The position numbers were made by a program, and so were the translations under genes. Below are positions 10,737 to 50,349 of a stretch of DNA of 64,000 nucleotides, piece after piece; position 1 is the first letter of the stretch; each line of letters opens with the position of its first letter. The notes under the pieces are model-generated. The model did no database searches, had not been told where the DNA came from, and saw nothing but the letters and a program-made list of their open reading frames with translations. Location of the stretch: contig CAYJKK010000004.1 of the NCBI GenBank assembly GCA_964370905.1, positions 38,289 through 102,288 of the forward strand, given 5' to 3'. Origin of the DNA: an uncultured Clostridium sp. GTDB lineage: Bacteria; Bacillota; Clostridia; TANB77; CAG-508.

Positions 10737-10887
10737 TAAAGGCTCCTTTCTTATATTAAATACTATCTTATATTATATAACATTTACATTGAAAATTAAA
10801 TACTTTTTCAAAATTTTATCCAACAGTTGTTCATAGACATATTTAGTCATTTTTTGTAGCATAATATTATATATGGAGGTAAATGTT

Positions 10888-14614: not shown

Positions 14615-14615
14615 T

Positions 14616-15775: not shown

Positions 15776-17612
15776 ATTAGATATGCAAACAACAGATATT
15801 GTAGATGAAAACATAGAAAAAATAGGAGAGTTGTTTCCAAATGTTATTGTTGAATCTGAAAAAGGAAAAGCAATAGATTTTAATTTACTAAAACAAGAAT
15901 TATCAAAAGTAGCAGTAGATGAAAGTAAAGAAAAATACCAACTTACTTGGCCAGGAAAAAAAGAAAGTATTATAACTGCAAATACTCCTACTACTAAAAC
16001 ATTAAGACCAGTAAAAGAAAAGTCAGTAGATTTTGAAAACACTAAGAATATATATATAGAAGGTGATAACCTTGAAGTATTAAAAATATTACAAGAGTCA
16101 TATTTAAATAAAGTTAAATGTATATATATAGACCCACCATATAACACAGGGAATGATTTTATATATAATGATAAATTTAGTAAAAGCAAAGAAGAAGAAT
16201 TAGAAGAGTCGGGACAAGTTGATGAATATGGTAATAAAATGGTATCTAACCCACAATCTAATGGTAAATATCATAGCGATTGGTTATCAATGATGTATCC
16301 AAGAATAAAGCTTGCTAGAAATTTACTTACTGATGATGGCGTAATATTTATATCAATTGATGATAATGAAGTTGATAATTTGAAAAAAGTTTGTAATGAG
16401 ATTTTTGGCGAGAATAATTTTATATGTGATATTATTAGAAAAACTAAATCTACAACTAATGATAGCAATGTAGGTGTAAATGTGCAACACGAAAATACAC
16501 TTATATATTCTAAAAATAACAATAAATGTAAATTATATGGTGAAGAAAAAACATTTGAAAACTACAAAAATCCTGATAATGATTTGAATGGAGAATGGTG
16601 TTCAGCAGATCCAAGTGCAAGAACAGGTTCTACATTTGAAATAATAAATCCGTATACGGGGAGAGTGGATTTGCCACCTTTAAACAGTTGCTGGAGATTT
16701 TCAAAAAAATCATTTGATGAATTTGTAAAAAGTGGTAAGATAAAATTCAAAGAATCTCATAATGAAAATGAAAGAGGATTTATATTTAAAAGATACAAAA
16801 ATGAAGTTAAGAGTGAATATAATAAAATCGGAAGTTTATTTGGTGTGGACAATAAATATATGAATCAAGCAGCAACTAAAAATATAAATGAATTAATTCC
16901 TGAGTTTAAAGCGTTTGATTATACAAAACCAGTAAACTATATGTTTAAATTATTACAATACTCATCAGATAAAGACACGATTGTTTTGGACTTCTTCTCG
17001 GGATCAGGAACAACAGCACACGCTTGTATGCAACTAAACGCTGAAGATGGTGGGAATAGAAAATACATAATGGTACAATTACCAGAAAAATGTGATGAAA
17101 AATCAGAAGCATTTAAGGCAGGATATAAAACGATTTGTGAAATAGGACAAGAAAGAATTCGTCGTGCTGCAAATAAAATAAAAGAAGAAACGAAAGCTGA
17201 TATTGATTATGGATTTAGAGTATATAAAGTAGATTCATCTAATATGAAAGATGTATATTATACAGCAGATGAATATAAACAAGAGCAATTAGAAATGTTT
17301 ACTACCAATATAAAAGAAGATAGAAATAATAACGATTTATTAACTTCTGTTATCTTAGATTTAGGTTTATCATTAGATTTAAAAATTGAAGAAAAAACAA
17401 TATTAGATAATAAAGTATATTTTATAGACGAAAATTCATTAGTAGCTTGTTTTGATGATAATATAAATATAGAAATAGTAGATAATATTGCAAAATATTC
17501 ACCATTAAAGGTAGTATTTAGAGAAAGTTCGTTTAAGTCCGATAATGATAAAATAAATTTAATGGAAAAGATGAAAAAAATATTGCCAGAAACAGAGGTT
17601 AGTGTAATATAA
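15768..17612 (+). CDS. mod: Type III-like DNA methyltransferase (Mod, beta-class N6/N4 MTase)
   Basis: YQLTWPGKK N-terminal motif. Motif IV IYIDPPYNTGNDF precedes motif I LDFFSGSGTTAHA. Confidence 0.85.
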   Translation: MNKLDMQTTDIVDENIEKIGELFPNVIVESEKGKAIDFNLLKQELSKVAVDESKEKYQLTWPGKKESIITANTPTTKTLRPVKEKSVDFENTKNIYIEGDNLEVLKILQESYLNKVKCIYIDPPYNTGNDFIYNDKFSKSKEEELEESGQVDEYGNKMVSNPQSNGKYHSDWLSMMYPRIKLARNLLTDDGVIFISIDDNEVDNLKKVCNEIFGENNFICDIIRKTKSTTNDSNVGVNVQHENTLIYSKNNNKCKLYGEEKTFENYKNPDNDLNGEWCSADPSARTGSTFEIINPYTGRVDLPPLNSCWRFSKKSFDEFVKSGKIKFKESHNENERGFIFKRYKNEVKSEYNKIGSLFGVDNKYMNQAATKNINELIPEFKAFDYTKPVNYMFKLLQYSSDKDTIVLDFFSGSGTTAHACMQLNAEDGGNRKYIMVQLPEKCDEKSEAFKAGYKTICEIGQERIRRAANKIKEETKADIDYGFRVYKVDSSNMKDVYYTADEYKQEQLEMFTTNIKEDRNNNDLLTSVILDLGLSLDLKIEEKTILDNKVYFIDENSLVACFDDNINIEIVDNIAKYSPLKVVFRESSFKSDNDKINLMEKMKKILPETEVSVI

Positions 17613-18419
17613 ATGAATATTAAAAAATATACATATAATTTTATCTTATTATTCTCAATTGTGCTGAATATATTTCTAGGTATTATTGTAATATTAAGTC
17701 ACTTAGATTTTAAATTTAATATTCTAACACAAGATAATTGGATTGATATTATGCTCTGTTTGATTACAATAATACCGACTAGTATATTTTCATATCTTAT
17801 ATTTAAACAAGCAAAAGATATTAGTAACAGGCAAGAAAAATTTGAAGTAGAACTGCTGCAGAAACAATTCGATGCTTCGCTAAGAGAAAATAGATTAAAT
17901 GTATATAATACTTTTATGAGTTTGAAATATATAGAAAGAATTTATAATAGTGATATAGTAATTTTAAATTTTATAAATCAAAATCACGAAGAAAACAAAA
18001 AAATATTTGATTTATTATTAAAAAAGGAAGAACAAATTATATTGGCATTATGTAATAGTAAGTTATTATTTAAGAATGATTTGGAACTAGAAGAACAAAA
18101 TGATAATTTGGCTAAATTGATTATAGCGTATAGAGAGTGTGCACAAGAATTTGCAAAAAATATCTATAAAGCAAATGATGAGGCGTTATCTTATTTGCAT
18201 ACATATCATTTATATATTCCAACGAAAGTTATACCGAAAAATGTAATAACAAAGAATAAAAAAATATTTAATGATGTAAAAGAAATATTTAGGAAATATA
18301 CAGAAGATTTGAAAAATAAAATAAGTGATATTAGTGATATATTTGATGGAGACTATTATATGAATTTATATGACAAATATATAAATATAGATATAAAAGA
18401 TAGTAGTATTGAAAAATAA
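17613..18419 (+). CDS. Membrane-anchored coiled-coil protein (268 aa), unknown function
   Basis: The ATG directly abuts the mod stop. Two N-terminal TM helices, then a helical Lys/Glu-rich domain. Confidence 0.6.
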   Translation: MNIKKYTYNFILLFSIVLNIFLGIIVILSHLDFKFNILTQDNWIDIMLCLITIIPTSIFSYLIFKQAKDISNRQEKFEVELLQKQFDASLRENRLNVYNTFMSLKYIERIYNSDIVILNFINQNHEENKKIFDLLLKKEEQIILALCNSKLLFKNDLELEEQNDNLAKLIIAYRECAQEFAKNIYKANDEALSYLHTYHLYIPTKVIPKNVITKNKKIFNDVKEIFRKYTEDLKNKISDISDIFDGDYYMNLYDKYINIDIKDSSIEK

Positions 18420-18441
18420 TAAAGTGAGAAAGGAGAAAAAC

Positions 18442-18801
18442 GTGGATAAATATTGTGATAAAGATGATATTACAAATTGGCTAAAAGAAGGTAAACATAT
18501 TTTTTTAGAAAACAGTAGAGTAGCAACAGATAGTGAAGAATTGAAAGAGGAAGAGTTATTTTTTGTTAGTGGAACATCTGAAATAAATAATAATATTGAT
18601 AGAATTACATTAACCCAAATAGATAGTGGTGAAATAGAAAATATATTAAATTATTTAGATGAAAATAGCCTAATAACTAAGAAAGAATTAGAACTAAAAT
18701 ATAATGTAACAAAAGAAAAAGATCATTCTATCAATGCTTTAATTGCTAAAAAATATATTAAAGAAGTTGGAGATAAATATCAAATTATAAAAAGGAGGTA
18801 A
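18442..18801 (+). CDS. Small protein with a winged-helix-like C-terminus (about 119 aa)
   Basis: RBS AAGGAG lies 6 nt before the GTG at 18442 (the ORF track begins at the TTG at 18409). C-terminal segment ITKKELELKYNV...INALIAKKYIKEVGDKYQI. Confidence 0.5.
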   Translation: MDKYCDKDDITNWLKEGKHIFLENSRVATDSEELKEEELFFVSGTSEINNNIDRITLTQIDSGEIENILNYLDENSLITKKELELKYNVTKEKDHSINALIAKKYIKEVGDKYQIIKRR

Positions 18802-18806
18802 AACAA

Positions 18807-21800
18807 TTGAAATTAAAATTTAAAAAACAACAATATCAAGAAGACGCAGTAATGTCAGTAGTAAATTGTTTTGCTGGGCAGAAAAAAGGAAATAGAAAAG
18901 ACTTAATAGCAAGATATACTAAGGTAACTGGTGTCGGATTTTTGGAAGAAAAAGAAGATGTAGAAGTAGTAGCATTCGGGAATAAACAAATCGAACTTTT
19001 AGAAAGTGAAAGAAGATTAAACATTAGAGAAGTACAAAGAGTAAATGATATTAATTATACAGACTCTGCTAGTTTAAATGATTTTACTATTGAAATGGAA
19101 ACTGGTACTGGTAAAACATTTACATATATAAAAACAATGTATGAACTAAATAAGCATTATGGTTGGAATAAATTTATTGTAATGGTTCCATCTATTGCAA
19201 TACGTGAAGGAGTACAGAAGTCTTTTGAAATAACTAAAGATTATTTTCAAGAAATATATCATAAAAAGATTAGATTTTTTGTATATAATTCATCAAATAG
19301 TTCTAATATAGCAAATATAAATACTTTTGCGTCAGATGATTCTGTGCAAGTAATGATAATAAATTATCAAGCATTTAATGCAAAATCAAGCAGTAATAGA
19401 AGAATATATGAAGAACTAGATGAACTGCAATCAAGAAGACCAATAGACGTAATTAAAAGTGTTAGACCAATTCTAATAATAGATGAGCCACAAAAGTTTG
19501 GAGATAAGACTGAGGAGCTATTTAAAGAATTTAATCCACTAATAAAAATAAGATATTCTGCAACACATAAAAAAGGTAAAGAATATAACAAAGTATATAG
19601 GTTAGACGCAATTGACGCATATAATCAAAAATTAGTTAAAAAAATAAATGTAAAAGGTATAGAAGTTCTAAATAACAAATCAGAAGATACATATATGTTT
19701 TTAGAAAGTGTAGATATAAGTCAAAAAAGTGATCCAGTGGCTAAAATGGAAATTGAAGTTAAATCACAAACAGGTGTTACTAGAAAATTAATGAAAATAA
19801 AAGCTGGAGATGATTTATATACAAAGTCAGGTGGATTAACACCATATAAGGGATATGTAGTGAGCGAAGTAGACGCAAGATATGAAGCTTATGATAAAGT
19901 ATTTTTTACAAATGGTAAAGAAATATCATCAGGTCAAGCAATTGGAGATGTAGACGAAGAATATATTGTAAGAATACAAATTAGAGAAACAATAAGAACT
20001 CATTTAGAAAAGGAAAAAGAGTTATTTAAACAAGGGATTAAAGTACTGTCATTATTCTTTATAAATGAAGTAGCTAAATACAAATTTTATGAAAATGGAA
20101 CTGCATTAAAAGGTGATTATGCTAAAATGTTTGAAGAAGAATATATTAATGCTGTAAATGATTTTAGAAGTATAATTGATGAGGAATATACAAAGTATTT
20201 AGATTCATTTGATACTGGTAAAATACACTCAGGATATTTTTCTATTGATAAAAAAGGACAAGTGGTAGATTCAGCAATAAACGATAAAAAAGAATATCTT
20301 AGTTTTGATGAAGGAGCATATGACTTAATAATGAAAGATAAAGAAAGGTTATTATCTTTATCTGAACAAGTTCGATTTATATTCTCACATTCAGCACTTC
20401 GTGAAGGTTGGGATAATCCTAATATATTTCAAATATGTACATTAAAACATAGTAATTCTGAAATTAGTAAAAGACAAGAAATAGGTCGTGGTCTTCGTAT
20501 TTGTGTAAACAATGATGGAGACAGAATGGATTATAATACTTTAGAAAATAATTTCCATATAGTTAATACTTTAACAGTAGTTGCAAGTGAATCTTATGAT
20601 AGTTTTGCTAAATCATTGCAATCAGAAATGTCAGATAGTTTAACAGCAAGACCTAAAAACTTTGTTCAAGAAAACTTTATTGGAAAAGTATTAGTAAATG
20701 AAGAAGGACATAAATATGAATTTACAGCAGAACATTATCAAGACTTTTTATTCCATAATGTAGAATGTGGATATATAGATAGAAAAGATAACTATAAAAT
20801 AACAGATAAATTTATTGATGATATGGAAAATAATAAACTAGAGATAATGGAAGAATTACAACCTTTTGAAAATGAAGTTCATAATTTAATGTTAAAATTA
20901 TACTCTACAAATAATACTAAATTAGTATCAGATGAAAGAAGAGAAAATATAAAAGATTTAAAACCGAATAGTAATTTTGAAAGAAAAGAATTCCAAGAAC
21001 TATGGGACAAAATCAATGTAAAAACAATGTATGAAGTTTCTTTTGATACAAATGAATTAATAGATAAAACAATTAATTCAATTAATGATAAATTAACAAT
21101 AAACAAAATGAAAGTAAGAATAACAGAAGGTAATCAGAAAGAAAATATATCAGCAGTAAGTGTAAATAGTAAAGAATCTATGGTAGAGGCAAAAACAAAA
21201 GTAGAAGTTGTTGATAGCTTTTCAAGTTCTCAAATAAAATATGATTTAATAGGAGAACTGACAAAAGACACTGGGCTTACGAGAAAAACAATTATTGATA
21301 TTTTGAAAAATATCAAAGCAGATAAATTTGAATTTTTCAAATATAATCCAGAAGAATTTTTAAGAAAAGTTTCAAAAATTATAAACGAAGAAAAAGCAAC
21401 AACTGTTATTGATGGAATAACTTATCACAAAACAGATAAAAAATATAGTAATGATATATTTACAATTAATAATGTAAGAGCAGAACTTGGAGAAAATGCA
21501 ATTGATGTAAAAAAACATATATATGATTTTCTTGTAACAGATTCTAATAACGAAAAAGAATTTGCTAAAAAATTAGAAACTGGAGAAGTAACAGTATATG
21601 CTAAGCTACCAAATGGGTTCAAAATACCAACTCCAGTAGGTAACTATAACCCAGATTGGGCAATTGTATTTGATAATGAAGATTTTAAATACATATATTT
21701 TATTGCAGAAACAAAAGGTAGTATGAAGTCAATGGAACTGCGAGAAGTTGAGAAAGCTAAAATAGAGTGTGCTAAAAAGCATTTCAAAGCTATATGTAAT

Positions 21801-21860
21801 GATAAAGTTAAATATGATGTAATAAATAACTATGAAACATTGATTAATATAGTAACATAG
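18807..21860 (+). CDS. res: Type III restriction enzyme Res subunit (helicase plus C-terminal PD-(D/E)xK nuclease)
   Basis: Walker [11 protein letters not shown], motif II IIDEPQKF, ALREGWDNPNIF, QEIGRGLRI. Nuclease motif NPDWAIVF...IAETKG. TTG start with RBS AGGAGG. Confidence 0.85.
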   Translation: MKLKFKKQQYQEDAVMSVVNCFAGQKKGNRKDLIARYTKVTGVGFLEEKEDVEVVAFGNKQIELLESERRLNIREVQRVNDINYTDSASLNDFTIEMETGTGKTFTYIKTMYELNKHYGWNKFIVMVPSIAIREGVQKSFEITKDYFQEIYHKKIRFFVYNSSNSSNIANINTFASDDSVQVMIINYQAFNAKSSSNRRIYEELDELQSRRPIDVIKSVRPILIIDEPQKFGDKTEELFKEFNPLIKIRYSATHKKGKEYNKVYRLDAIDAYNQKLVKKINVKGIEVLNNKSEDTYMFLESVDISQKSDPVAKMEIEVKSQTGVTRKLMKIKAGDDLYTKSGGLTPYKGYVVSEVDARYEAYDKVFFTNGKEISSGQAIGDVDEEYIVRIQIRETIRTHLEKEKELFKQGIKVLSLFFINEVAKYKFYENGTALKGDYAKMFEEEYINAVNDFRSIIDEEYTKYLDSFDTGKIHSGYFSIDKKGQVVDSAINDKKEYLSFDEGAYDLIMKDKERLLSLSEQVRFIFSHSALREGWDNPNIFQICTLKHSNSEISKRQEIGRGLRICVNNDGDRMDYNTLENNFHIVNTLTVVASESYDSFAKSLQSEMSDSLTARPKNFVQENFIGKVLVNEEGHKYEFTAEHYQDFLFHNVECGYIDRKDNYKITDKFIDDMENNKLEIMEELQPFENEVHNLMLKLYSTNNTKLVSDERRENIKDLKPNSNFERKEFQELWDKINVKTMYEVSFDTNELIDKTINSINDKLTINKMKVRITEGNQKENISAVSVNSKESMVEAKTKVEVVDSFSSSQIKYDLIGELTKDTGLTRKTIIDILKNIKADKFEFFKYNPEEFLRKVSKIINEEKATTVIDGITYHKTDKKYSNDIFTINNVRAELGENAIDVKKHIYDFLVTDSNNEKEFAKKLETGEVTVYAKLPNGFKIPTPVGNYNPDWAIVFDNEDFKYIYFIAETKGSMKSMELREVEKAKIECAKKHFKAICNDKVKYDVINNYETLINIVT

Positions 21861-21901: not shown

Positions 21902-24223
21902 ATGATTAGAGAAAATTCTTTTGTACCAGTATATACTGATATACATATTCATACATCAGAAGATCCAGATAAATTAAATTCAAAATATAACATAGAAAAA
22001 CTTATTGCTAATATGAATAAAATTGCACAAAATTCTATAAAACTAATAAGTTTTACAGATCATAATGTAATAAATAAGAGTGTATATCTAAGTGAATTTC
22101 CAAATGATGTATATTTGGTTTTAGGTGTAGAACTTCATATTAGATTCGCTAAAGAAAAGGAGCCTTATCACTGTCATATGTTATTTGACTGTGAAATAAC
22201 TGAAAATACTATAGATGTAATTAATGACAAACTAAATAAATATTACCCAATAAAGCATATTAAAAACGAAGATAATATACCTTTTTTGCAAGATATAATA
22301 AATGAGTTTGATGATTATAATTACTTGATTTTACCTCATGGTGGACAAAACCATAAGACATTTAACTTAGCTATACCTAAGGGGAGCAAATTAAATAATG
22401 TTATGGAAAGAATGCTATACTATAATCAATTTGATGGATTTACCTCTAGATCACAAACTGGAACAAAGAAAACAATCGATTATTTTAAAAAATTAGGAAT
22501 AAATGAATTTACAAATTTATTAACCTGCAGTGATAATTATAAGCCAAATAGTTATCCTAATCCTAAAAGTGGTACTAAAACATTCATACCTACTTGGATA
22601 TTATCGGAACCTACATTTGAAGGTTTAAAAATAGCTTTATCTGAAAAATCCAGACTAATATACTCAAAGGAAAAACCAGAAATTTATGAAGAATATATAA
22701 AAGAGTATAAAATAAAAAATGATAAATTGAATATTGATGTAAAATTCCAACCTGGATTAAATGTAATAATTGGGGAGTCATCTAGTGGAAAAAGTTTATT
22801 AGTTGATACGTTGCTTAATTCAATTAAAGGAACAATTAAACAAAGCTCATATGCTAAGAAATTTGACTTTGCTAATTTGAATGTTAGTAATCCAGCTGGA
22901 TTCACACCGCATTATATAAATCAAAACTATATTATGGACATATCAAAAACTGAAAAAATAGAAGATATTCCTTTAATAAAAAAGATGTTTGGATCTAAAA
23001 CAGAGATAGAGATTAAGACAGATGAAAAGATACTAGAATTAAAAGAAACACTTGATTTTATAATTGATAAAGTTGAAAGTATTCAACAGTTACACTCTGA
23101 GTTTAAATCTTTATTAAGTATAAATAAAATTTTACTTAAAAAAACAAAAAATATAAATCCATTTAACACTATATTTCCAGATAATAGATTACTTGAAAAA
23201 ATGGATTTTAGTAAAACTACATATAACGAATTCTTGACAAAATTAGACGAAATAGATAAATTTGCTAAAAATAATATTTTTACTGATGATATAACAAATG
23301 AAATAGAAATTATTAAAGAAAAATTAAAGAATAGTTTCGAGTTAAATGTATTCCAAGAAATTATTTCTAATATAATCAGTGATAAACAAACTAAATTTTT
23401 AGAAATGTTAGAGCAACAAACAGACAAAGAAAAAATAAAAAAAGAAAATTATAACAAACTGATATATTTTATTAGTAAATATTTAGAAGAAATAGATGCG
23501 TTTGATAAGAAAATAAAAAAACTAAAAAAATATTCGTATAAAATAAACTCAGATAAAAAAGTTATTGCAAATCATAAACTATATGTATCTAATGAATTTA
23601 AGATTGATGATAAAGTTATATTAGAAAATTTAAATACATTCTTAATTAGAGATAAAGAAATCAAAGAATTTGACTCAATAACACCAGAAATGCTATTTTT
23701 GAATAATTATAATGGTAATTATAAAATTAAAAGCTATGATATTTTAAAAAACAAATTATTAGAGGCATTTACAAGTAATAATGTATATAAATATAAAATA
23801 ACTACTTCTGATAATAGAAATTGGTCTGACCTAAGTCCAGGATGGAAAACGGCTATTTTAACGGAATTAATTTTACAATATGATGGTGATCAGGCACCTT
23901 TAATTATAGATCAACCAGAGGATAATCTGGCTAATGGATACATCAATAATAAGTTAATTACAGACATTCAGAAAGCAAAAATAAGAAAGCAGATAATAAT
24001 AGTAACACATAATGCAACAATTCCAGTATTAGGTGATGCACAAAATATAATAGTATGTCAAACCAAAAATAATGTTTTAAATATTAACTCGGGATTATTG
24101 GAAGAAAAAATAGATGATAAATTTTCACTAGAGCATATTGCACAAATAGCTGATGGTGGAAAAAGCTCCATTAAAAAGAGATTTAAAAAATATAATATCA
24201 AGAAGTTCAGGGAGAGTGATTAA
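21902..24223 (+). CDS. PHP-domain phosphoesterase fused to an ABC/SMC-like ATPase (PplA-like defence protein candidate)
   Basis: PHP His motifs DIHIHT, FTDHN, LPHGGQNH. Walker A IIGESSSGKS. Coiled-coil middle region. Signature-like LSPGWK, Walker B LIIDQPEDNL, IIVTHNA. Confidence 0.7.
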   Translation: MIRENSFVPVYTDIHIHTSEDPDKLNSKYNIEKLIANMNKIAQNSIKLISFTDHNVINKSVYLSEFPNDVYLVLGVELHIRFAKEKEPYHCHMLFDCEITENTIDVINDKLNKYYPIKHIKNEDNIPFLQDIINEFDDYNYLILPHGGQNHKTFNLAIPKGSKLNNVMERMLYYNQFDGFTSRSQTGTKKTIDYFKKLGINEFTNLLTCSDNYKPNSYPNPKSGTKTFIPTWILSEPTFEGLKIALSEKSRLIYSKEKPEIYEEYIKEYKIKNDKLNIDVKFQPGLNVIIGESSSGKSLLVDTLLNSIKGTIKQSSYAKKFDFANLNVSNPAGFTPHYINQNYIMDISKTEKIEDIPLIKKMFGSKTEIEIKTDEKILELKETLDFIIDKVESIQQLHSEFKSLLSINKILLKKTKNINPFNTIFPDNRLLEKMDFSKTTYNEFLTKLDEIDKFAKNNIFTDDITNEIEIIKEKLKNSFELNVFQEIISNIISDKQTKFLEMLEQQTDKEKIKKENYNKLIYFISKYLEEIDAFDKKIKKLKKYSYKINSDKKVIANHKLYVSNEFKIDDKVILENLNTFLIRDKEIKEFDSITPEMLFLNNYNGNYKIKSYDILKNKLLEAFTSNNVYKYKITTSDNRNWSDLSPGWKTAILTELILQYDGDQAPLIIDQPEDNLANGYINNKLITDIQKAKIRKQIIIVTHNATIPVLGDAQNIIVCQTKNNVLNINSGLLEEKIDDKFSLEHIAQIADGGKSSIKKRFKKYNIKKFRESD

Positions 24224-24975: not shown

Positions 24976-25449
24976 ATGGACAAGATTCCTAAAAGAAGAA
25001 AAAGAAAAGATAATCCATATACCATTTTTAAAAATGGTGATACATATAAAATATCATTTAAAGATAATCAAGGTAGGATACAAAAAGTTGATATTACAAA
25101 AGAAATATATGAAGTATTTAATGAATTTGAACTTATGGATAAGTCTTTAATAAATGAAGAAGAGAGATATTTTGAAAGATTAGAGTTATCAGAAGAATTG
25201 ATACATAAAAGGGCATTTATTAACCCAATAGCATTATTAGATGAGGTAGTTCTTAAAGATACTTTAAATAAGTTAAAAATAGCTTTAAATAGTTTACCTG
25301 AAATTCAAAAAAAAAGAATTGAAATGTACTATTTTAACAGTATGACATTTCAACAAATTGCTCAAAAAGAAGGTTGTACTAAGAGAGCAGTTAAGTTTTC
25401 TATAGATTTAGGAATAGAAAAAATGAAAAAAATTTTAAAAAATTTATAA
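24976..25449 (+). CDS. Sigma-70 region-4-like HTH protein typical of conjugative-transposon regulation modules
   Basis: LPEIQKKRIEMYYFNSMTFQQIAQKEGCTKRAVKFSI. RBS GGAGGA. Confidence 0.65.
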   Translation: MDKIPKRRKRKDNPYTIFKNGDTYKISFKDNQGRIQKVDITKEIYEVFNEFELMDKSLINEEERYFERLELSEELIHKRAFINPIALLDEVVLKDTLNKLKIALNSLPEIQKKRIEMYYFNSMTFQQIAQKEGCTKRAVKFSIDLGIEKMKKILKNL

Positions 25450-25923: not shown

Positions 25924-26283
25924 ATGGAGATATTAAAAGGAGATGTATATTATGCAATATTAGATCCAGTTGTAGGTTCAGAACAAGGTGGAAATAGACC
26001 AGTAGTTGTTGTTCAAAATAAATATGGAAATAAACATAGTACAACTGTATTGATTGCACCGATTACTAAAGATTCGCATCCTAAAAAGAATTTACCAACT
26101 CATATAGCAATAAAAAGAAATGATAAAATTAAACATAATTCTCTAATATTATTAGAACAAATCAGAGTTATTGATAAAAAGAGATTAGGTAATTATTTAA
26201 CAAAACTAGACAATGATATTATAGCAAGAATTGATAAAGCTATGCTTATATCACTTGGAATAGAAAATAGGAGGAAAATTTAA
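25924..26283 (+). CDS. mazF: MazF/PemK (EndoA-like) endoribonuclease toxin
   Basis: GDVYYAILDPVVGSEQGGNRPVVVVQN and LLEQIRVIDKKRL closely resemble B. subtilis EndoA. RBS GGAAGGAG. Confidence 0.85.
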   Translation: MEILKGDVYYAILDPVVGSEQGGNRPVVVVQNKYGNKHSTTVLIAPITKDSHPKKNLPTHIAIKRNDKIKHNSLILLEQIRVIDKKRLGNYLTKLDNDIIARIDKAMLISLGIENRRKI

Positions 26284-26973: not shown

Positions 26974-28167
26974 ATGGAAAAAATTAAAAATTACAAAGGT
27001 ACAATAGCTTTTTATTATAAAGGTTCTTGGTATCATAGGAAGAAAACAATCAATGAGTTTGGAAAAACTGTTTATTCAAGACTAGGGGGATTTGCTACTC
27101 CTGAAGAAGCTGAAGAAAGTTATTATAAATATTTAAAAATATTTGAAGATGAACAATCAAAAATAATATCACCGAAAGTAAATAAAGATATTCTATTAAA
27201 AGATTATCTAATATATTGGTATGAAAGTATATTAAAAGAAAGAGTAAAATCAACTACAAGTATGACAGTTTCGTATGCTATATATAAATTGATAATACCA
27301 AATCTGATGTATGATATAAAATTAACACATATTACAACAGAGTATATAAATGAGTTATTAGAAAGTATTAATAAATTAGGTACTTCTACTGCAAATAAAG
27401 CAAGAGAAATATTATTTCTAGCATTAAAAGAAGCGTGGCTTGAAAAATATATAACAACTAATCCAGTTGAAAAATCAAAAGAATATAGAAGAAACAATAA
27501 ACCTATTACTATATTAAAAGAAGATGAGATAAAAAAGATGTTAGAAGTAACATCCAAAGAAAATTGGTATTTAGAAATTTTATTAGCACTTTTCTGTGGT
27601 CTTCGTAAAGGGGAAATAATGGGCTTGAAATTTACAGATTTTGATTTTAAAAGAAATACAGTTACAATATCTAGGCAGGTAGCTACTAATTTCACAATGA
27701 AAGCTAATGAATTTAATATTAGTAATGCAAAAAGAATAGAAACAGAACCTAAAACTGAAAATAGTTATAGAACTTTAAAAGTTCCTAAAATGATTATGGT
27801 AGAAGTAACTAAAAGAAAAGAATATATGAAACAACAAAAATTAATTTTAAAAGATAATTTTATTGATAATGATTATATAACTTGTCAAAAAAATGGTAGT
27901 GCAAGAAGTGCAGGTTCATTAAATACATATTTACAAAAGTTATCGAAAAGATTAAATTTTTCTAATATAACAATACACGGTCTTAGACATATGTATGCAA
28001 CAATATTAATAGAACAAAATGTTGCATTACCTAAAATTTCTTCATTACTAGGACATAATTCAATTCATACAACCTATAACATTTATTGTGGTGTAATGAA
28101 TGATAATGATAGAATTCTTGCATTTATGAATAATAAATTTAATGTGAAGGAGGAAATAAATGAGTAA
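26974..28167 (+). CDS. int: Tyrosine recombinase/integrase 1 with an N-terminal arm-binding (AP2-like) domain
   Basis: LRKGEI (Arg I), HGLRHMYAT, LGHNSIHTTYNIY (catalytic Tyr). Confidence 0.85.
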   Translation: MEKIKNYKGTIAFYYKGSWYHRKKTINEFGKTVYSRLGGFATPEEAEESYYKYLKIFEDEQSKIISPKVNKDILLKDYLIYWYESILKERVKSTTSMTVSYAIYKLIIPNLMYDIKLTHITTEYINELLESINKLGTSTANKAREILFLALKEAWLEKYITTNPVEKSKEYRRNNKPITILKEDEIKKMLEVTSKENWYLEILLALFCGLRKGEIMGLKFTDFDFKRNTVTISRQVATNFTMKANEFNISNAKRIETEPKTENSYRTLKVPKMIMVEVTKRKEYMKQQKLILKDNFIDNDYITCQKNGSARSAGSLNTYLQKLSKRLNFSNITIHGLRHMYATILIEQNVALPKISSLLGHNSIHTTYNIYCGVMNDNDRILAFMNNKFNVKEEINE

Positions 28168-29455
28168 TAAAGAGTATATAGACTATAAAGTATATAATAT
28201 CACTAAAATAAAGAATAAGTATGGTTATAGAATAAAATTAGAATATTATGATGGAACTAGTAGTCTAATTCAAAAGTCAGGTTTTAAAACATTAAAAGAA
28301 GCTACAGAAAGCAAGAATAAATCAATTGCAGATTTGATAAATAAAACATTTATATTAAATGATAGTATTTCTATAAAAGATTTTTACACTAAGTGGTTAG
28401 AAGAGATTATGAGACCTAAAATTACAGCAGGTTCGTATGATTCATATAAAAATATAGTATATAATCATATTATACCGTATTTTAAAGGAATGAAATTAAC
28501 TACCTTAGACAAATCACATATCCAAAGATTATATAATTCTAAAGTAGAATACTCACTTAGTGTAACTAGGGGGATAAGTATTGTTATCCATACATCTTTA
28601 AATTATGCAGTAGAAAAAAATTATATAAAAGTAAATCCATCTCAAGGAATAAATTTACCTAAAAATATAAAGAAAAAAGAATATAGGAAAACAAATATTA
28701 ATTCAGCAGATACTTTAACTGAAGAACAAATACTAATATTACTTGAACATAGTAAAGGGACACTTATTTATCTACAAATAATGTTTGCTGTTTTAATGGG
28801 ATTAAGAAAAAGTGAAATAAATGGTCTAAAATATACAGATATTGATTTTGTAAGAAGAAAAATTCATATACAAAGACAATTAGGAGTTATGCCTAATACT
28901 AAGTTAGAAGATGTACCACTTGGAAAATATACAAAGCAAGAAATAAAGTGTAAAACATTTTCTAGTAATAGAATATTAAATATACCAGATATTTTATTTG
29001 AAGAAATATTAATAGAAAAAGCTAAATATGAAAAGCGCAAAAATAGAAGAAAGAATGACCAAACTAATACATTCTTCGATTTAAACTATATCATTTGCAG
29101 TTCAAATGGAAATCCTAGAAGTAAATCATTTCATTTTAAACATTGGAAGGAAATTCTAAAAAAAGCAAATTTACCTGATATGAAGTTCCACGATTTAAGA
29201 AAAACTTATTGTACTTTATTATTAAATAATAATTTCAATTCTAAAGCAGTATCTTCTTTAATGGGACATGCTACTGAAATAATAACTGTTGATGTATATG
29301 GTGATAAACAGCAACTTGTTAAAGATGGTACATTAGAATTAGAGCCATTTTTAGATAGAGTGTTACCTAAGAATACAGAAAATAATACTAATTTATCAAA
29401 CGATACAGAAATTAATAAAGTAATTAATGATATAACAGAATATTTTTTAAAATAA
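28160..29455 (+). CDS. Tyrosine recombinase/integrase 2
   Basis: LRKSEI, HDLRKTYCT, MGHATEIITVDVY. Overlaps int1 by 8 nt. Confidence 0.85.
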   Translation: MSNKEYIDYKVYNITKIKNKYGYRIKLEYYDGTSSLIQKSGFKTLKEATESKNKSIADLINKTFILNDSISIKDFYTKWLEEIMRPKITAGSYDSYKNIVYNHIIPYFKGMKLTTLDKSHIQRLYNSKVEYSLSVTRGISIVIHTSLNYAVEKNYIKVNPSQGINLPKNIKKKEYRKTNINSADTLTEEQILILLEHSKGTLIYLQIMFAVLMGLRKSEINGLKYTDIDFVRRKIHIQRQLGVMPNTKLEDVPLGKYTKQEIKCKTFSSNRILNIPDILFEEILIEKAKYEKRKNRRKNDQTNTFFDLNYIICSSNGNPRSKSFHFKHWKEILKKANLPDMKFHDLRKTYCTLLLNNNFNSKAVSSLMGHATEIITVDVYGDKQQLVKDGTLELEPFLDRVLPKNTENNTNLSNDTEINKVINDITEYFLK

Positions 29456-32376: not shown

Positions 32377-32890
32377 ATGGTTTTAAATGATTTAAAGGAG
32401 ATAGCAGAAAATATAAAAGAAAAAGACCCAGCAAGTAAAAATATATTAGAAGTAATAATTCTATATCCAGGTTTTCATATACTAATATTTCACAAGTTAG
32501 CACATTTTTTATATAATAAAAATTGGCTATTTTTAGCAAGGCTTGTATCACAAGTAGGAAGATTTTTAACTGGAATTGAAATACATCCAGGTGCAAAAAT
32601 AGGTAAACGACTTTTTATAGACCATGGAATGGGAATAGTAATAGGTGAAACTGCAACAATTGGTGATGATTGTACAATTTATCATAATTCGACTTTAGGT
32701 GGGACAGGGAAAGATGAAAATAAACGACATCCAGATATAGGAAATAATGTAATGGTAGGAGCAGGAGCTAAAATCTTGCGGTCCAATTAAGATAGGAAAC
32801 AATGTAAAAATAGGTGCAAATGCAACTGTACTTACAGATATACCAGATAATGTAACTGTTGTAGAATGTAATAGAATAGTAAAAACTTGA
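32377..32890 (+). pseudogene. cysE: Serine O-acetyltransferase, interrupted by a +1 frameshift near 32779
   Basis: Hexapeptide repeats. Frame 1 ends [10 protein letters not shown], while the +1 frame continues [28 protein letters not shown] to the TGA at 32888-90. Confidence 0.8.
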
Positions 32891-32915
32891 CAAGTCAAAT
32901 GATATTATGTATACT
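32887..32915 (+). promoter_or_regulatory. Sigma-A promoter of orphan gene A
   Basis: TTGACA, 17 nt, TATACT. The -35 overlaps the cysE stop codon. Confidence 0.6.
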
Positions 32916-32971
32916 ACTTAACAGGACAATTTTTAATAGATAAGTTATATACTAAAATTTTGGAGGACATT

Positions 32972-33754
32972 ATGAAGAAAGAAAACTTATTAAAATCAAT
33001 CGCTGATATTAATCAAGAAATCAAGAGTATTAAAGAAGAGATTGGTAATCAAGACAGAGTCAATATTGCTCTTGATATTAGATGTTTAGCAAGAAAAATA
33101 TTTACATTCTTACGAGATATAGAAGAAGAAATATTGGTTAAAGAATCTACTATTTGCTTGAATGCTACAGAGCAAGATGAGTTTGAAGAAGAACTTGAAA
33201 AAATGTCTTCTAAGTATAAAAAACTTAAAAAGGATCTTACATCTTTTAAAGGTTTAGATGGATTAGAAGATATCATAGAAAGCACAGTTGATGCAGCTAA
33301 ATGTTATATTAATGGATTGCAATATGAAGAGGCATTAAAAGAGCCTACACTATATAGTATAGATGAAAAGTACTTTATTTTTGCAAATACTGATTTAATA
33401 ACAGATGAAGCTAATATATATAATAGTTTAGATGCTGCTTTAGAAAATCTTGTTGCTAGAATAAATGTGTTATTCATTAAAGAAGATAATCAATATGTTA
33501 TTGATTCAGGAGATGAAGTAGGTTCAAGGATATATTGTTTACAAAATGCTGTTAATACTGCGTATGAAGTTGCGATATTATCTAAAATAAGTAGTGAAAA
33601 TCTAAAAATTATTAACTCAGTTGAGCCAAAAAGATTAAACGAAATTATAAAGTTTTTGAAAATTTTTAATAACTTTTATAGTGAAACTGATATGTTCCCA
33701 TATAGAACAATAACTACTTTTTTAGATGCACTTATAAAATGCATTAAGAAGTAA
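32972..33754 (+). CDS. Orphan acidic helical protein A (about 260 aa)
   Basis: RBS GGAGGA 5 nt before the ATG at 32972. No known motif. Confidence 0.65.
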   Translation: MKKENLLKSIADINQEIKSIKEEIGNQDRVNIALDIRCLARKIFTFLRDIEEEILVKESTICLNATEQDEFEEELEKMSSKYKKLKKDLTSFKGLDGLEDIIESTVDAAKCYINGLQYEEALKEPTLYSIDEKYFIFANTDLITDEANIYNSLDAALENLVARINVLFIKEDNQYVIDSGDEVGSRIYCLQNAVNTAYEVAILSKISSENLKIINSVEPKRLNEIIKFLKIFNNFYSETDMFPYRTITTFLDALIKCIKK

Positions 33755-33786
33755 AATTAAGCTTAAATTGTCCAAAATAACTTATC

Positions 33787-33819
33787 AAAAAAAGACTTAT
33801 GAAATCATAGGTCTTTTTT
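33787..33819. terminator. Intrinsic terminator of gene A
   Basis: A run, AAAGACTTATG-aaat-CATAGGTCTTT, T run. Confidence 0.75.
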
Positions 33820-33821
33820 AT

Positions 33822-33850
33822 TTGACAAAAAATACGATATTATGTATACT
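33822..33850 (+). promoter_or_regulatory. Sigma-A promoter of orphan gene B
   Basis: TTGACA, 17 nt, TATACT. GATATTATGTATACT is identical to promoter A. Confidence 0.6.
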
Positions 33851-33907
33851 GGATGTAGGACAATTTTACCATAGATAAGTTATAAAACATTTAAGGAGGA
33901 CTACTGT

Positions 33908-34687
33908 ATGCAAAAATCAATAATTGGTAGAATGAGTGAAATTATAAATATAGGTGACACTATATTGAAAAACTTCATTAGCTACGATAAGAAAGCATTG
34001 TCTCAAAAAATCTTAAACTTTACGGATTCAATGTATGAATTAATTAAAGATTTAGAAAGCTATGTATCATCAGATATATTAGTAGAAGATGATCTACTAA
34101 TTGATCGATATGTAAAAAATCTAGAATATGTAGTTAAAAACATTGAAGAAATATTTCATTATTATACGGGAATAACGGAGCTGAGCAATTCAATAGTTAC
34201 GTATATTTATATACTAACTAAAAAAGATACTGAGCCCTGTGAACTAGATACTTTTGGATTAAAAATGTTAGAAGAAGATCTAGTTGACTTTGAAAAAGTT
34301 AGAGTGAATTTGGAGAAATTAATTTGCAGACCTAAAATAAAGGAAATATATAGTGAAATAGTCACTGTAGCTTCTTTATCACAAGCAATACTTCAAGATG
34401 ATGGTTTGGGAAATGGTGAAATGATACTCCCAGAAGATATAACTATAAATGAAGAAGGTTTCAAAAAACTAAAAGATAGTTCATATGAAGCATATAAAAG
34501 GATTTTAGAATTTTCAATAATAGATAGAGACTATCTAATTAAAGAGGAATATTCTAAAGAGATAGATACTATATATGAATGGCTATCCACATTTGTAGTG
34601 TATTTAGTTGGAAACAAATTAGCGGTAGGATTAATAGGAACTTTAACAGCTTTTGATGCTGTATATCAAGAGTTTTTTGATTGTTAG
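33908..34687 (+). CDS. Orphan acidic helical protein B (259 aa)
   Basis: RBS AAGGAGGA. No known motif. Weak C-terminal resemblance to A (TxTxF-DA). Confidence 0.65.
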   Translation: MQKSIIGRMSEIINIGDTILKNFISYDKKALSQKILNFTDSMYELIKDLESYVSSDILVEDDLLIDRYVKNLEYVVKNIEEIFHYYTGITELSNSIVTYIYILTKKDTEPCELDTFGLKMLEEDLVDFEKVRVNLEKLICRPKIKEIYSEIVTVASLSQAILQDDGLGNGEMILPEDITINEEGFKKLKDSSYEAYKRILEFSIIDRDYLIKEEYSKEIDTIYEWLSTFVVYLVGNKLAVGLIGTLTAFDAVYQEFFDC

Positions 34688-34717
34688 AATAACTTAAATT
34701 GTCCCAAATAACTTATC

Positions 34718-34751
34718 AAAAAAAGACTTATGAAAATATAAGTCTTTTTTT
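34718..34751. terminator. Bidirectional terminator (gene B and the convergent PRTase gene)
   Basis: AAAGACTTAT-gaaaat-ATAAGTCTTT flanked by A and T runs. Confidence 0.75.
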
Positions 34752-34761
34752 ATATGGTTAT

Positions 34762-35619
34762 TTAATTAATACCGTAAATATTATTGTCAACTAATAGCTG
34801 AGCTCTTTTTTTAGTTTTCTCATCACTATTTAAAGAATTCGTAATAAATTCAGGATGGTTAATTAAAAAGTTTCTCATAGATTCGTCTGGATTATGATAG
34901 AAATTATTTAATAACTCTTGTTGTACTGTAGTAATTAAATTCATATCTACAGCTTTTTGAAAAAGCTTTTCATCTACATTTACTAAAGAATAGGATGCAA
35001 TACCTTTAGATTCAATTATTTCTGTACCACCTTGCATTCTATCAACAACAACGCAAGACCAAGCAATTTTACCACCTAAATTTTCAATAGCAGGTATCCA
35101 AGCTCTAACATAACTTGAAGCTACAGTAATTAAATCAGCAATATGCAGTACTTTTTTATTAGCTAAGCTAGTTATTTCTAAATCGCTATTAAAGTCATAA
35201 GAATTAATCTTAATTGATAAATCTTTATATATTGAAATATGAGGTTTTTTTAATATATATGATATTACATTTGAAAAGAACCAATCACGTCTTTCACCAG
35301 CAGATATATAGTCTATTTCGTTAATATCTATATTTGCTTTTATTATAGTTACCATAGCATCTATAACATTTTTATATATTTCATTATTTTCATATTGTAA
35401 AAAAGTTTTATCAAAAACTTTTTTAGGTAAAGTGTCTTTGTCACTTAAACTTTCATCTATAAAAGAAAGTAAGTTTACAGCATCTGTTTCAGATCCATAT
35501 ATAAAATGTGTATTTATAAAATATGGTCCTATTTTACCAGATGTATACCAAAAAGGCTTGTTTTCCTCACAAAATTTTATAGCATTTGTGCTAAATAAAT
35601 ATGATTCTATATTAATCAT
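34762..35619 (-). CDS. Type I phosphoribosyltransferase, PyrE-like long form (285 aa)
   Basis: N-terminal AIKFCEENKPFWYTSGKIGPYFIN resembles OPRTase. Degenerate PRPP loop VLHIADLITVASS. Confidence 0.5.
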   Translation of the reverse strand: MINIESYLFSTNAIKFCEENKPFWYTSGKIGPYFINTHFIYGSETDAVNLLSFIDESLSDKDTLPKKVFDKTFLQYENNEIYKNVIDAMVTIIKANIDINEIDYISAGERRDWFFSNVISYILKKPHISIYKDLSIKINSYDFNSDLEITSLANKKVLHIADLITVASSYVRAWIPAIENLGGKIAWSCVVVDRMQGGTEIIESKGIASYSLVNVDEKLFQKAVDMNLITTVQQELLNNFYHNPDESMRNFLINHPEFITNSLNSDEKTKKRAQLLVDNNIYGIN

Positions 35620-36273: not shown

Positions 36274-36302
36274 TTGACAATTAACATAATGTATGATAAA
36301 AT
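36274..36302 (+). promoter_or_regulatory. Sigma-A promoter of orphan gene C
   Basis: TTGACA, 17 nt, TAAAAT with an upstream TGa (extended -10). Confidence 0.6.
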
Positions 36303-36353
36303 ACTATACGAATTTAATTAAAAAAAACTTATATTACAGCAGGAGGAAACAGC

Positions 36354-36944
36354 ATGAAAAAAGTAAATCAAAACAAAATAGTAGAGGTGTCAAAAGCACT
36401 ATATAGTTTAAAACGATTTGAAGAAATATGTAAGCAAATATATCTAGGTTTTGAAACATTACAATCATCAAATGAAGCAAGAGAAGAAAGCATATTTAAA
36501 TTATCAAACTCTATTATTTACTTTAATGATATATTACTTGAACTAGAAAAAATAGTTAAAAGTAAAAAAGTAGATAACGAAATTGAAACCCTTATAATTG
36601 AAACAGAAAGTCATTTAGAAACAGATATACAGTCAGATAAATATGGATTTGGAGTAGAAATATATTTCGATAAAGAAGATTTGCCAGTACACTCAAAGAC
36701 TGTAACTATAAAAAAGAGTAACGTCATTCTTATTTTGGAATATAAATATAATCTAGAAAAAAGTTATGAAACACTAGAAATATCAAAGATGTTTCGTCAA
36801 GAAAGCTTGCATATGCAAAATTCTTTTGTTTTAGATTTGAAATCTGGAACAATAGATGAAATAGCTATTTCAAATGAAATGAGCTTATGTATTATAGAGG
36901 ATTTGAAATTAGCTGTTGATACAATAAAAAAAGCATTTAAATAA
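36354..36944 (+). CDS. Orphan protein C (196 aa)
   Basis: RBS AGGAGGAAA. C-terminal region paralogous to D. Confidence 0.65.
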   Translation: MKKVNQNKIVEVSKALYSLKRFEEICKQIYLGFETLQSSNEAREESIFKLSNSIIYFNDILLELEKIVKSKKVDNEIETLIIETESHLETDIQSDKYGFGVEIYFDKEDLPVHSKTVTIKKSNVILILEYKYNLEKSYETLEISKMFRQESLHMQNSFVLDLKSGTIDEIAISNEMSLCIIEDLKLAVDTIKKAFK

Positions 36945-36954
36945 TATAAGTTGT

Positions 36955-36988
36955 GTGCCAGAATAGATTTATCTGGCGCAATTTTTTT
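36955..36988 (+). terminator. Intrinsic terminator of gene C
   Basis: GTGCCAGA-atagattta-TCTGGCGC followed by a T run. Confidence 0.7.
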
Positions 36989-37017
36989 ATTTAGAGAATA
37001 TATAATAATATGGAATT

Positions 37018-37046
37018 TTGACAAACTGATTAAAAGATGATAATAT
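37018..37046 (+). promoter_or_regulatory. Sigma-A promoter of orphan gene D
   Basis: TTGACA, 17 nt, TAATAT with an upstream TGa. Confidence 0.6.
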
Positions 37047-37095
37047 ATGTGAAATCTAGTTTAAAAAACTTATATTACAACAGGAGGAAAACATC

Positions 37096-38031
37096 ATGAG
37101 TATTAGTAGATATGAATTTGTCCAAGTAGCAGAATTATTAGGAGGAAAGGTTGTAGAGAACTATAGTACCAAGGCTACCAAATTAGATTTTGCAGAATAT
37201 ATTAGCAAAATTGCTGAGCAGAACACGTTGTATACAGGTATATATGAATTTAATAATGGTATTAGATTTATACATAACCAAGATGAAGCGAGAGTACAAA
37301 TAGTACGGGATCAAATTTGGGAATTAAAAAGCAAAGAAAGACCGTCTAAAACATTATATGAAATTGTGTCTGAAACTGAAGAACTATTTAAAGGTCAAGA
37401 TAAAGTTATAGAAAATGAGGAAGGATATATATTAACAACAATAGCATATATATCTGCTATCTTAATTTCTAAAGAAGAGTATAGTAAGCAAAAAGTACAA
37501 GAAATTATGAATAATGTATATAACAATCTTTTTATTCAAATGGAAGAAACTTTTTTAGTAGATATTTCGGAATTAATTAATGTAATGAAGAAGTATAAGC
37601 ATATATTTAAAAAAGAACATTTCATTAATTCACTAACAGAAGAAAGTGAAAGTAAAGTAGATATAAAAATATATCTAGAAGAAAATTCCATGGAGATTGA
37701 TATAATTTCGAAAGATAAGTTATGTTCGTTAAGAATGTATCATGGCAGTACAGAAATAATGTTGGAGATAATTAGTGATAAATATAAGCCATATGAATAT
37801 TATTATAATTTGAAAACCAAAACAGAAACACTTGAATTTTCTCCGAGAGATACTGGATATAGGTCTGGATATTTTAAATTAAATCTTCAAACAGGCTCTA
37901 TCGGAGATAAATTTATTACTCAAGAACAGTTAGATGACTTAATAACTGATCTAGAAGAAGTAATTAAAATTGTTGAAGATAAAATCTTAATGTATTTACC
38001 AAATTATAAGAAACTAGTGACTGAAAAATAA
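37096..38031 (+). CDS. Orphan protein D (311 aa)
   Basis: RBS AGGAGGAAAA. C-terminal ETLEFS...FKLNLQTGSIGD...ITDLEEVIKIV aligns with C. Confidence 0.65.
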   Translation: MSISRYEFVQVAELLGGKVVENYSTKATKLDFAEYISKIAEQNTLYTGIYEFNNGIRFIHNQDEARVQIVRDQIWELKSKERPSKTLYEIVSETEELFKGQDKVIENEEGYILTTIAYISAILISKEEYSKQKVQEIMNNVYNNLFIQMEETFLVDISELINVMKKYKHIFKKEHFINSLTEESESKVDIKIYLEENSMEIDIISKDKLCSLRMYHGSTEIMLEIISDKYKPYEYYYNLKTKTETLEFSPRDTGYRSGYFKLNLQTGSIGDKFITQEQLDDLITDLEEVIKIVEDKILMYLPNYKKLVTEK

Positions 38032-38042
38032 AATATAAGTTT

Positions 38043-38075
38043 AAACTACCAAATATATTAGTTTGGTAGTTTTTT
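38043..38075 (+). terminator. Intrinsic terminator of gene D
   Basis: AAACTACCAAA-tatattag-TTTGGTAGTTT followed by a T run. Confidence 0.75.
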
Positions 38076-49390: not shown

Positions 49391-49471
49391 AATATTTTTA
49401 TAAGTTATAACTGATAAAAATATAAAAAAAGATTAAAAAAAAGTTATATCTGTGGTAAATATATAAACTAA

Positions 49472-50137: not shown

Positions 50138-50349
50138 AATTTCCTCCTTTTTTATATATTAAACTAATATTAGTATAACATAAGTTATATAAAAAAACAA
50201 ACTAGAATGAAATAAAGAAAAAAATTAATATAACAATATAAATTATTAGTTATATTATTGTAATTTAATTGTGAAAATTATTGTATAAAAAAAAATGGTT
50301 TGATATAATGCAAACGTGAAATGAATATATTTTTTTAGGAGGAAATAAA

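Follow-up and report, generated by a model that had tools for sequence, protein, structure and literature searches.

Mutually complementary leader and 3′ islands in two tandem orphan genes of an uncultured gut Clostridium suggest a long-range pairing of mRNA ends

Why would two neighbouring genes keep nearly the same promoter, leader and terminator around coding sequences that have nothing recognizable in common? The question is raised by a 64,000-nucleotide stretch of an uncultured Clostridium sp. (GenBank assembly GCA_964370905.1, contig CAYJKK010000004.1, positions 38,289 to 102,288), referred to here as the window, in which two monocistronic units on the forward strand, A (32887-33822) and B (33822-34754), each run from their own promoter to their own terminator. 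The host belongs to the uncultured gut Clostridia and has 26% G+C, and its relatives are metagenome-assembled genomes (MAGs) of gut origin, from rabbit, goat, human and chicken. We propose, tentatively and with a probability of roughly 0.4, that A and B are paralogous monocistronic frames which have been conserved because the untranslated regions (UTRs) at their 5′ and 3′ ends pair as a long-range RNA helix. This reading, drawn from the sequence, is put forward because the complementarity is exact in both copies, coincides with the conserved islands of the leaders, and recurs in a second pair of orphan genes, C and D (36354-38031), which begins 1.6 kb downstream.

The two units are built alike at both ends. 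Promoters A (32887..32915) and B (33822..33850), of the sigma-A type, each consist of TTGACA, a 17-nt spacer and TATACT, match the consensus at 11 of 12 positions and carry TG at -15/-14 as an extended -10 element; the upstream block GATATTATGTATACT is identical at 15 of 15 positions. The start site of mRNA A is predicted 7-8 nt past the -10 box, at about 32922-32923, and from the predicted transcript ends the leaders would measure ~50 nt and the 3′ UTRs ~30 nt. In the leaders the islands AGGACAATTTT (11/11) and ATAGATAAGTTATA (14/14) are perfectly kept, as is the Shine-Dalgarno sequence GGAGGAC (7/7; 32962-32968 in A, 33895-33901 in B), whereas the spacers between the islands are scrambled, so that the conservation of the leader is patchy; folded alone, the leaders have no structure of their own. 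The 3′ flanks (33762-33819 and 34693-34750) are identical at 54 of 58 positions (93%), and they include the intrinsic terminators. Terminator A (33787..33822) has an A-tract, an 8-bp stem and a U-tract and folds at -14.8 kcal/mol (z -4.15), terminator B (34718..34754) folds at -15.9 kcal/mol (z -3.77), and for both not one shuffled sequence folded equally well; the two differences between them both preserve the stem (U.G to U-A and G-C to G.U). Terminator B probably serves both strands, because a convergent phosphoribosyltransferase-like (PRTase-like) gene ends at 34762. The cassettes are spaced by 931-935 nt, and a global DNA alignment confines their similarity sharply to the flanks: it stops at the ribosome-binding site and restarts 5-8 nt past the stop codon. 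Every promoter, leader, GGAGGAC and 3′-flank element listed in the initial annotation of this DNA is therefore present where it had been placed, and its estimate by eye of nine-tenths identity for the 3′ flanks agrees with the measured value. A search of Rfam matched no RNA family.

The open reading frames (ORFs) inside these flanks behave differently. ORF A (32972-33754) and ORF B (33908-34687) encode orphan proteins of 260 and 259 amino acids, acidic (D+E 47 and 48 against K+R 34 and 28) and predicted to be all-helical, as had been described from the letters alone; the B protein has a hydrophobic C-terminal segment. Both are real protein-coding genes, because chance cannot produce an open frame of 260 codons at 26% G+C and because codon preference points the same way: codon usage and composition are typical of the genome, and frame 0 is strongly preferred. 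Comparison of the two proteins gave a BLASTP E value of 0.75, local and global alignment scores of z ~0 against shuffles, and a correlation of ~0 between the hydropathy profiles in register; alignment of the two coding sequences as DNA detected no similarity (p = 0.45 overall), and no alternative-frame relationship between the two ORFs was found. The C-terminal motif T-x-T-x-F-DA, previously taken as a faint shared signature, is not above chance (p = 0.32 for the last 120 nt against codon shuffles, whole-protein z ~0). The cassette picture, that of conserved flanks around dissimilar cores, thus stands, but the homology implied in calling the cores diverged does not: 'diverged paralogues' is an assumption for these ORFs, and their homology is unsupported. 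Single-sequence AlphaFold models are all-helical for both proteins but of low confidence, with predicted local distance difference test (pLDDT) values of 48.5 (A) and 38 (B), and Foldseek with the model of A found no match in the PDB (best E 0.56, TM score below 0.25). The helix boundaries of these low-confidence models agree above chance (p ~0.005-0.015), and this match and the equal length are the sole, weak hints of a common ancestry.

Relatives of either protein were not recovered. A word-indexed search of 5.8 billion proteins returned the query alone, an exhaustive phmmer search of A against 1.84 billion representatives returned the self match only, and sequence searches of Pfam, NCBIfam, PADLOC, PHROGs and the PDB returned nothing for A or B. 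The orphan status is to be read cautiously, since even the housekeeping neighbours, hpt and ispG included, are singleton clusters at 90% identity and no other contig encodes them exactly; the species is therefore represented by a single public genome.

What the leaders and the 3′ UTRs share, and what the initial annotation did not contain, is mutual complementarity. Segment X (GGACAATTT; 32924..32932 in A, 33858..33866 in B) is the outermost 5′ segment of the predicted mRNA, starting 1-2 nt past the predicted start site, and its exact reverse complement over 9 nt, X′ (AAATTGTCC; 33765..33773 in A, 10 nt past the stop codon, and 34696..34704 in B), lies in the 3′ UTR. Segment Y (GATAAGTTAT; 32939..32948 and 33874..33883) follows in the leader, and its exact 10-nt complement Y′ (ATAACTTATC; 33777..33786, directly before the terminator in A, and 34708..34717) again lies in the 3′ UTR. 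Unit B holds a second partner for Y, termed Y″ (ATAACTTA; 34689..34696), which starts 1 nt past the stop codon on the 5′ side of X′, so that in B the order X-Y can pair with Y″-X′ in a nested arrangement. In the leaders the complementarity falls on the very islands that are perfectly conserved, X′ and Y′ are placed between stop codon and terminator, and all pairing partners fall inside the predicted transcript, either between start site and ribosome-binding site or between stop codon and terminator.

The same anatomy recurs downstream in other letters. Unit C, again on the forward strand, has a promoter and leader at 36274..36353 (TTGACA, 17 nt, TAAAAT, with TG), in which the segment M (AACTTATATTA) occupies 36326-36336; ORF C (36354..36944) encodes an orphan of 196 amino acids that is a paralogue of D; and M′ (TAATATAAGTT; 36942..36952), the exact complement of M over 11 nt, overlaps the stop codon of C and is followed by a terminator at 36956-36990. 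Unit D has its promoter and leader at 37018..37095, where TAGTTTAAA, AAA and CTTATATT in succession (37057-37076) are complementary to the 3′ UTR; ORF D (37096..38031) encodes an orphan of 311 amino acids; and the 3′ partner AATATAAGTTTAAACTA (38032..38048), which pairs over 17 bp with a 3-nt bulge, enters the 5′ arm of the D terminator (38043-38072). The C and D proteins align with z ~5 and ~27% identity, mostly in the C-terminal half. Their units have consensus promoters of their own and wholly different terminators, and they keep a leader block, AAAAAACTTATATTACA.CAGGAGGAAA, and a 9-nt block, ATATAAGTT, lying across or directly beside the stop codon, the two blocks being complementary to each other. 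Judged from these sequences, C and D are an independent replicate of the A and B design. In searches with tblastn none of A to D matched the 80 related MAG loci (L001-L080) that formed our comparison set.

How unusual such complementarity is was assessed against a background of 1,116 genes, drawn from the window together with the 80 related loci. A 10-mer together with a separate 9-mer, as in A and B, has P = 5.7e-4 among 29,747 mismatched pairs of 5′ and 3′ flanks; an exact 11-mer, as in C, has P ~0.005 among mismatched flanks; and the gapped match of D has P = 3e-4 among 6,627 mismatched pairs. Ranked by RNAduplex energy, the strongest outliers among the 55 window genes are A, B and D (z -3.2, -2.8 and -3.7). 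When full-length mRNAs were folded, a helix between the 5′ and 3′ ends was predicted in all four genes with pairing probabilities of 0.4-0.9. The minimum-energy fold of mRNA B is the nested helix, in which X pairs with 34697-34704 at a probability of ~0.8-0.9 and Y pairs with Y″; that of mRNA A combines Y:Y′ with a pairing of UGUCC in X′ to GGACA (32965-32969) of the ribosome-binding site; and in mRNA C the M/M′ pairing is predicted with a probability of ~0.9.

The two pairs of genes also differ from each other in a manner that may be compensatory. When MAFFT was used to align the upstream regions of all four genes and, apart from these, their downstream regions, Y (AAGTTAT in A and B) fell in register with M (AACTTAT in C and D), and Y″ of B (ATAACTT) with M′ (ATAAGTT). 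In this register the central pair of the helix is flipped, G-C in A and B and C-G in C and D, and a second pair is flipped too, so that two pairs are changed on both sides; 78.6% of cells can pair, compared with 30-46% when the partner is slid. Covariation between the A/B and C/D pairs is suggestive only.

Based on these findings, the first ~30 nt of the mRNA, X and then Y, would anneal to the stretch that separates stop codon and terminator (Y″, X′ and Y′), and this pairing would close the mRNA into a loop. The helix arm at the extreme 5′ end of A and B could hinder RppH and RNase J1, as is expected from established Firmicute mRNA decay. The 3′ arm of B, C and D begins at a distance of 0-2 nt from the stop codon, and owing to this proximity a terminating ribosome would melt the helix, which could couple the fate of the mRNA to its translation.

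Two characterized mRNAs offer models for this proposal. In the Bacillus subtilis hbs mRNA, 14 nt of the leader pair with a stretch of full complementarity just ahead of the terminator, and the pairing restricts cleavage by RNase Y, as compensatory mutants prove (Braun, Durand and Condon 2017, PMC5737220); by analogy, the helix proposed here may shield the leader and the 5′ end from RNase Y and RNase J1. The resemblance extends to the Firmicute host, the short monocistronic mRNA, the strong ribosome-binding site, the position of the 3′ arm just upstream of an intrinsic terminator and a helix of similar size and energy, with 14 nt at -19 kcal/mol in hbs and 9+10, 11 or 17 nt at ~-12 to -16 kcal/mol in the present genes. 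However, the pairing is proven in vivo for hbs and predicted here. The hbs leader is moreover long and highly structured, whereas the present leaders are ~50 nt and unstructured alone; unlike in hbs, the arm lies at the extreme 5′ end (A and B), the 3′ arm adjoins the stop codon or overlaps it (B, C and D), and the design is repeated in four neighbouring orphan genes. In the Staphylococcus aureus icaR mRNA, a UCCCCUG motif in the 3′ UTR pairs with the Shine-Dalgarno sequence, masks it and creates a substrate for RNase III (Ruiz de los Mozos et al. 2013, PMC3868564). The pairing of UGUCC with GGACA in the fold of mRNA A is of the same kind, and by analogy the helix of unit A could also occlude its ribosome-binding site; the differences from icaR are that the 3′ UTRs here are only ~30 nt, that the main pairing partners lie upstream of the ribosome-binding site, and that occlusion is predicted in A only.

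A number of observations weigh against the pairing proposal. In A the order X-Y ... X′-Y′ crosses, so that both helices cannot form a simple stem, and the good nested partner Y″ is found in B only, its counterpart in A (33755-33764) being degenerate (AAGCTT). Y itself is nearly palindromic (ATAA-G-TTAT), and an 'inverted' copy of it is for this reason more readily met by chance. When only a single match is considered, the best local alignments of A, B and C are marginal (P ~0.04-0.08), and a genome-wide habit of complementarity between 5′ and 3′ flanks, which was considered as a broader setting, was rejected, own and mismatched flanks having equal distributions up to 10-mers. AU-rich mRNA ends pair readily in silico, and in the full-length folds the controls with shuffled UTRs did not separate A, separated B weakly and were good for D only. 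The covariation score was reached by 33 of 500 shuffles and draws on four sequences from two lineages only, and since A and B are duplicates, as are C and D, the four genes amount to only two independent observations. Finally, the transcript starts and 3′ ends are predictions throughout.

The first alternative, which we consider unlikely but worth serious weight, is a tandem duplication with concerted evolution, in which short gene-conversion tracts, or selection on promoter, ribosome-binding site and terminator alone, keep the flanks alike, the ORFs have drifted or been replaced, and the complementarity is a functionless by-product, for example of a gene that landed in or near an old hairpin. 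The 3′ flank fits recent conversion well, since its 93% identity over 58 nt includes the terminator loop and is more uniform than structure needs. The A and B terminators also resemble, and can be loosely aligned with, the lone terminator that L002, the closest syntenic relative, has between cysE and the PRTase-like gene, so that the flank may be ancestral local sequence, and the weakness of the shuffle controls for A and B is as such a by-product would predict. However, duplication and conversion leave unexplained that complementarity to the 3′ UTR falls exactly on the perfect leader islands, that X and Y, which neither promoter nor ribosome-binding site needs, are kept at all, and that C and D, with their unrelated terminators, still keep a complementary block after the stop codon. 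Selection on regulatory RNA elements accounts better for the patchy conservation of the flanks.

It is less probable that diversifying selection acts on A and B as paralogues, or that they are alleles exchanged through their conserved flanks, as at immunity or surface-variation loci, which was the interpretation given in the initial annotation. The equal size of the cassettes, the sharp break of similarity at the ORF edges and the above-chance agreement of the helix boundaries in the low-confidence models would all fit, and direct flank repeats would permit unequal crossing-over. Nevertheless, the ORFs are without residual similarity of any kind, and a homologue or the flank motif was found in no other strain or species searched: the leader motif had 0 matches in viral contigs and 0 in the 80 related loci, and its 51 matches in metagenome contigs were rejected as chance occurrences without a common context. 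The immunity or surface-variation role finds no foothold either, as PADLOC, Pfam, NCBIfam and PHROG searches were empty, the immediate neighbours are housekeeping genes and no toxin, secretion or defence partner gene is present; inspection by eye, no predictor having been run, recognized a signal peptide at neither N-terminus. The units do resemble gene-cassette arrays, such as integrons or polymorphic immunity loci, in being tandem and of similar size with conserved boundaries around unrelated ORFs, but they differ in that each has its own strong promoter and terminator, in that there are two units only with no evidence of exchange, and in the absence of a toxin or secretion context. An integron cassette in the strict sense was rejected: the units carry their own promoters and terminators, reading the flanks by eye revealed no RYYYAAC/GTTRRRY core pair or attC-like site, and no integron integrase was seen. 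Thus conserved flanks around a hypervariable core do not by themselves indicate diversifying selection.

Improbable to a further degree is that the repeated segments are DNA operators, X and the near-palindrome ATAA(G/C)TTAT being bound by a dimeric regulator, with sites at both gene ends that allow repression through a roadblock or DNA looping. The 4-1-4 palindrome of Y, the location of X and Y at +1 to +27, a classic repressor position, and the placement of the 3′ sites of A 36-57 bp upstream of promoter B are all compatible with this, and the core ATAAGTT/AACTTAT is common to both gene pairs, with 12 of its 32 window copies in the 11% of sequence that is intergenic. Yet X and the C/D motif are non-palindromic and are matched by exact inverted copies nonetheless, no promoter follows the 3′ copy behind B, every copy lies within the transcript boundaries, which an operator does not require, and no regulator gene is adjacent. 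The core motif was tried as a lineage-wide element and set aside: across the lineage ATAACTT/AAGTTAT is not intergenically enriched, ranking 26 and 57 among 140 7-mers of the same composition.

That the inverted repeats are crossover sites of a site-specific recombinase which flips each ORF relative to a fixed promoter, giving phase variation, is very improbable: 9-10 bp inverted repeats, the size of those of the fim switch, do flank each ORF, and two tyrosine recombinases are encoded 3.4 kb upstream (26974-29455), but these terminate a conjugative element, whose integrases they probably are, the right-hand site of A is not the mirror of the left (X-Y, then X′-Y′), and, unlike the usual switch design of the fim or cwpV type, the segment excludes the promoter and contains the ribosome-binding site.

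The setting of the locus shows that A and B are an insertion relative to the nearest relative. The gene order is uvrB, a CmpB-like membrane protein gene, cysE, A, B, the convergent PRTase-like gene, hpt, C, D and ispG, in a region strongly rearranged among species. In L002, whose uvrB is 89% identical, only 56 bp with a bidirectional terminator separate cysE from the PRTase-like gene where the window has A and B, which therefore constitute a 1.9-kb lineage-specific block. At 32768-32886 the cysE gene of the window, for serine O-acetyltransferase, has an apparent frameshift, one extra base near 32778 (cttgCggtcc), after which its last ~35 codons run on in another frame to a TGA within the -35 box of promoter A; the orthologue in L002 is intact (172 amino acids), and the frameshift marks either a pseudogene or an assembly error. 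The PRTase-like gene (34762-35619, minus strand) encodes 285 amino acids, matched weakly and below cut-offs by the pyrE and apt models; the protein is 64-76% identical across ~80 species of the lineage, is usually encoded beside pyrimidine-biosynthesis genes, and is an uncharacterised family.

The conjugative element mentioned above occupies positions 1-29500 of the window; this integrative conjugative element adjoins uvrB and ends before it, so the cassettes lie outside. It encodes a VirD4/TraG coupling protein (2126-3955), a VirB4-like ATPase (6431-8767), a CHAP peptidase (8780-10312), restriction-like cargo made up of an SNF2 helicase, a DUF4391 protein, an N6/N4 methylase and a ResIII plus endonuclease protein (11333-21860), followed by a 773-amino-acid protein with no Pfam match (21902-24223), a sigma-70 region-4 protein (24976-25449), MazF (25924-26283) and, at its end, the two tandem tyrosine recombinases.

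Several further sequences in the window and the related loci recall parts of the design. In L002 a two-gene operon (9071-9830, minus strand) between hpt and the PRTase-like gene encodes K/E-rich helical orphans of 116 and 99 amino acids, and its leader contains a local hairpin, ATAACTT-N7-AAGTTAT, with the same 7-mer arms as Y′ and Y; this may be a coincidence, because lineage-wide the motif shows no enrichment. A conserved gene for a ~160-amino-acid protein with a hydrophobic, signal-peptide-like N-terminus (L016 8121-8612, L025 8100-8591, L064 4544-5035, L078 1280-1771 and others) has a leader 9-mer, TCATTTAAT, complementary to ATTAAATGA over the stop codon in most orthologues examined, lost in L016; it may be a further case of pairing between 5′ and 3′ ends, its sequences being too alike for a covariation test. 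Within the window, ATAAGTTAT is found in two copies of the same orientation (49397-49409 and 50178-50190) that flank a DUF5684 membrane-protein gene (49517-50137, minus strand), one of them as part of the 13-nt palindrome TTATAAGTTATAA; given their direct orientation and their position outside the UTR logic, these copies were rejected as another pairing case. In L005 a long G+C-containing palindrome (TTTTGGGGACGGAGGAAAAAATCATGATT ... AATCATGATTTTTTCCTCCGTCCCCAAAA; 10880-10935) forms an intergenic bidirectional terminator, and palindrome copies on either side of the PRTase-like gene may explain the top own-flank complementarity scores in L043, L052, L035 and L080.

A bolder form of the pairing proposal can be stated, which we regard as doubtful: the frame would be a reusable closed-loop expression unit in which the pairing is the selected feature and unrelated genes have been captured or have arisen inside, the four orphans within 5 kb would share a descent-related RNA architecture with compensatory change between the pairs, and in reduced, AT-rich gut Clostridia such frames might act as a nursery of genes specific to the lineage.

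In conclusion, intramolecular pairing of 5′ and 3′ UTRs has been proven for few bacterial mRNAs, of which hbs and icaR are the standard examples, and this work finds the corresponding anatomy four times in 5 kb, with islands that have been kept as their surroundings, the coding sequence included, changed, and with a possible compensatory flip between the two pairs. If the pairing is confirmed, closed-loop mRNAs would be a heritable and duplicable design and not a one-off, and UTR elements could outlast the genes that they frame. They would then also offer compact, portable UTR modules for the tuning of expression in Clostridia.

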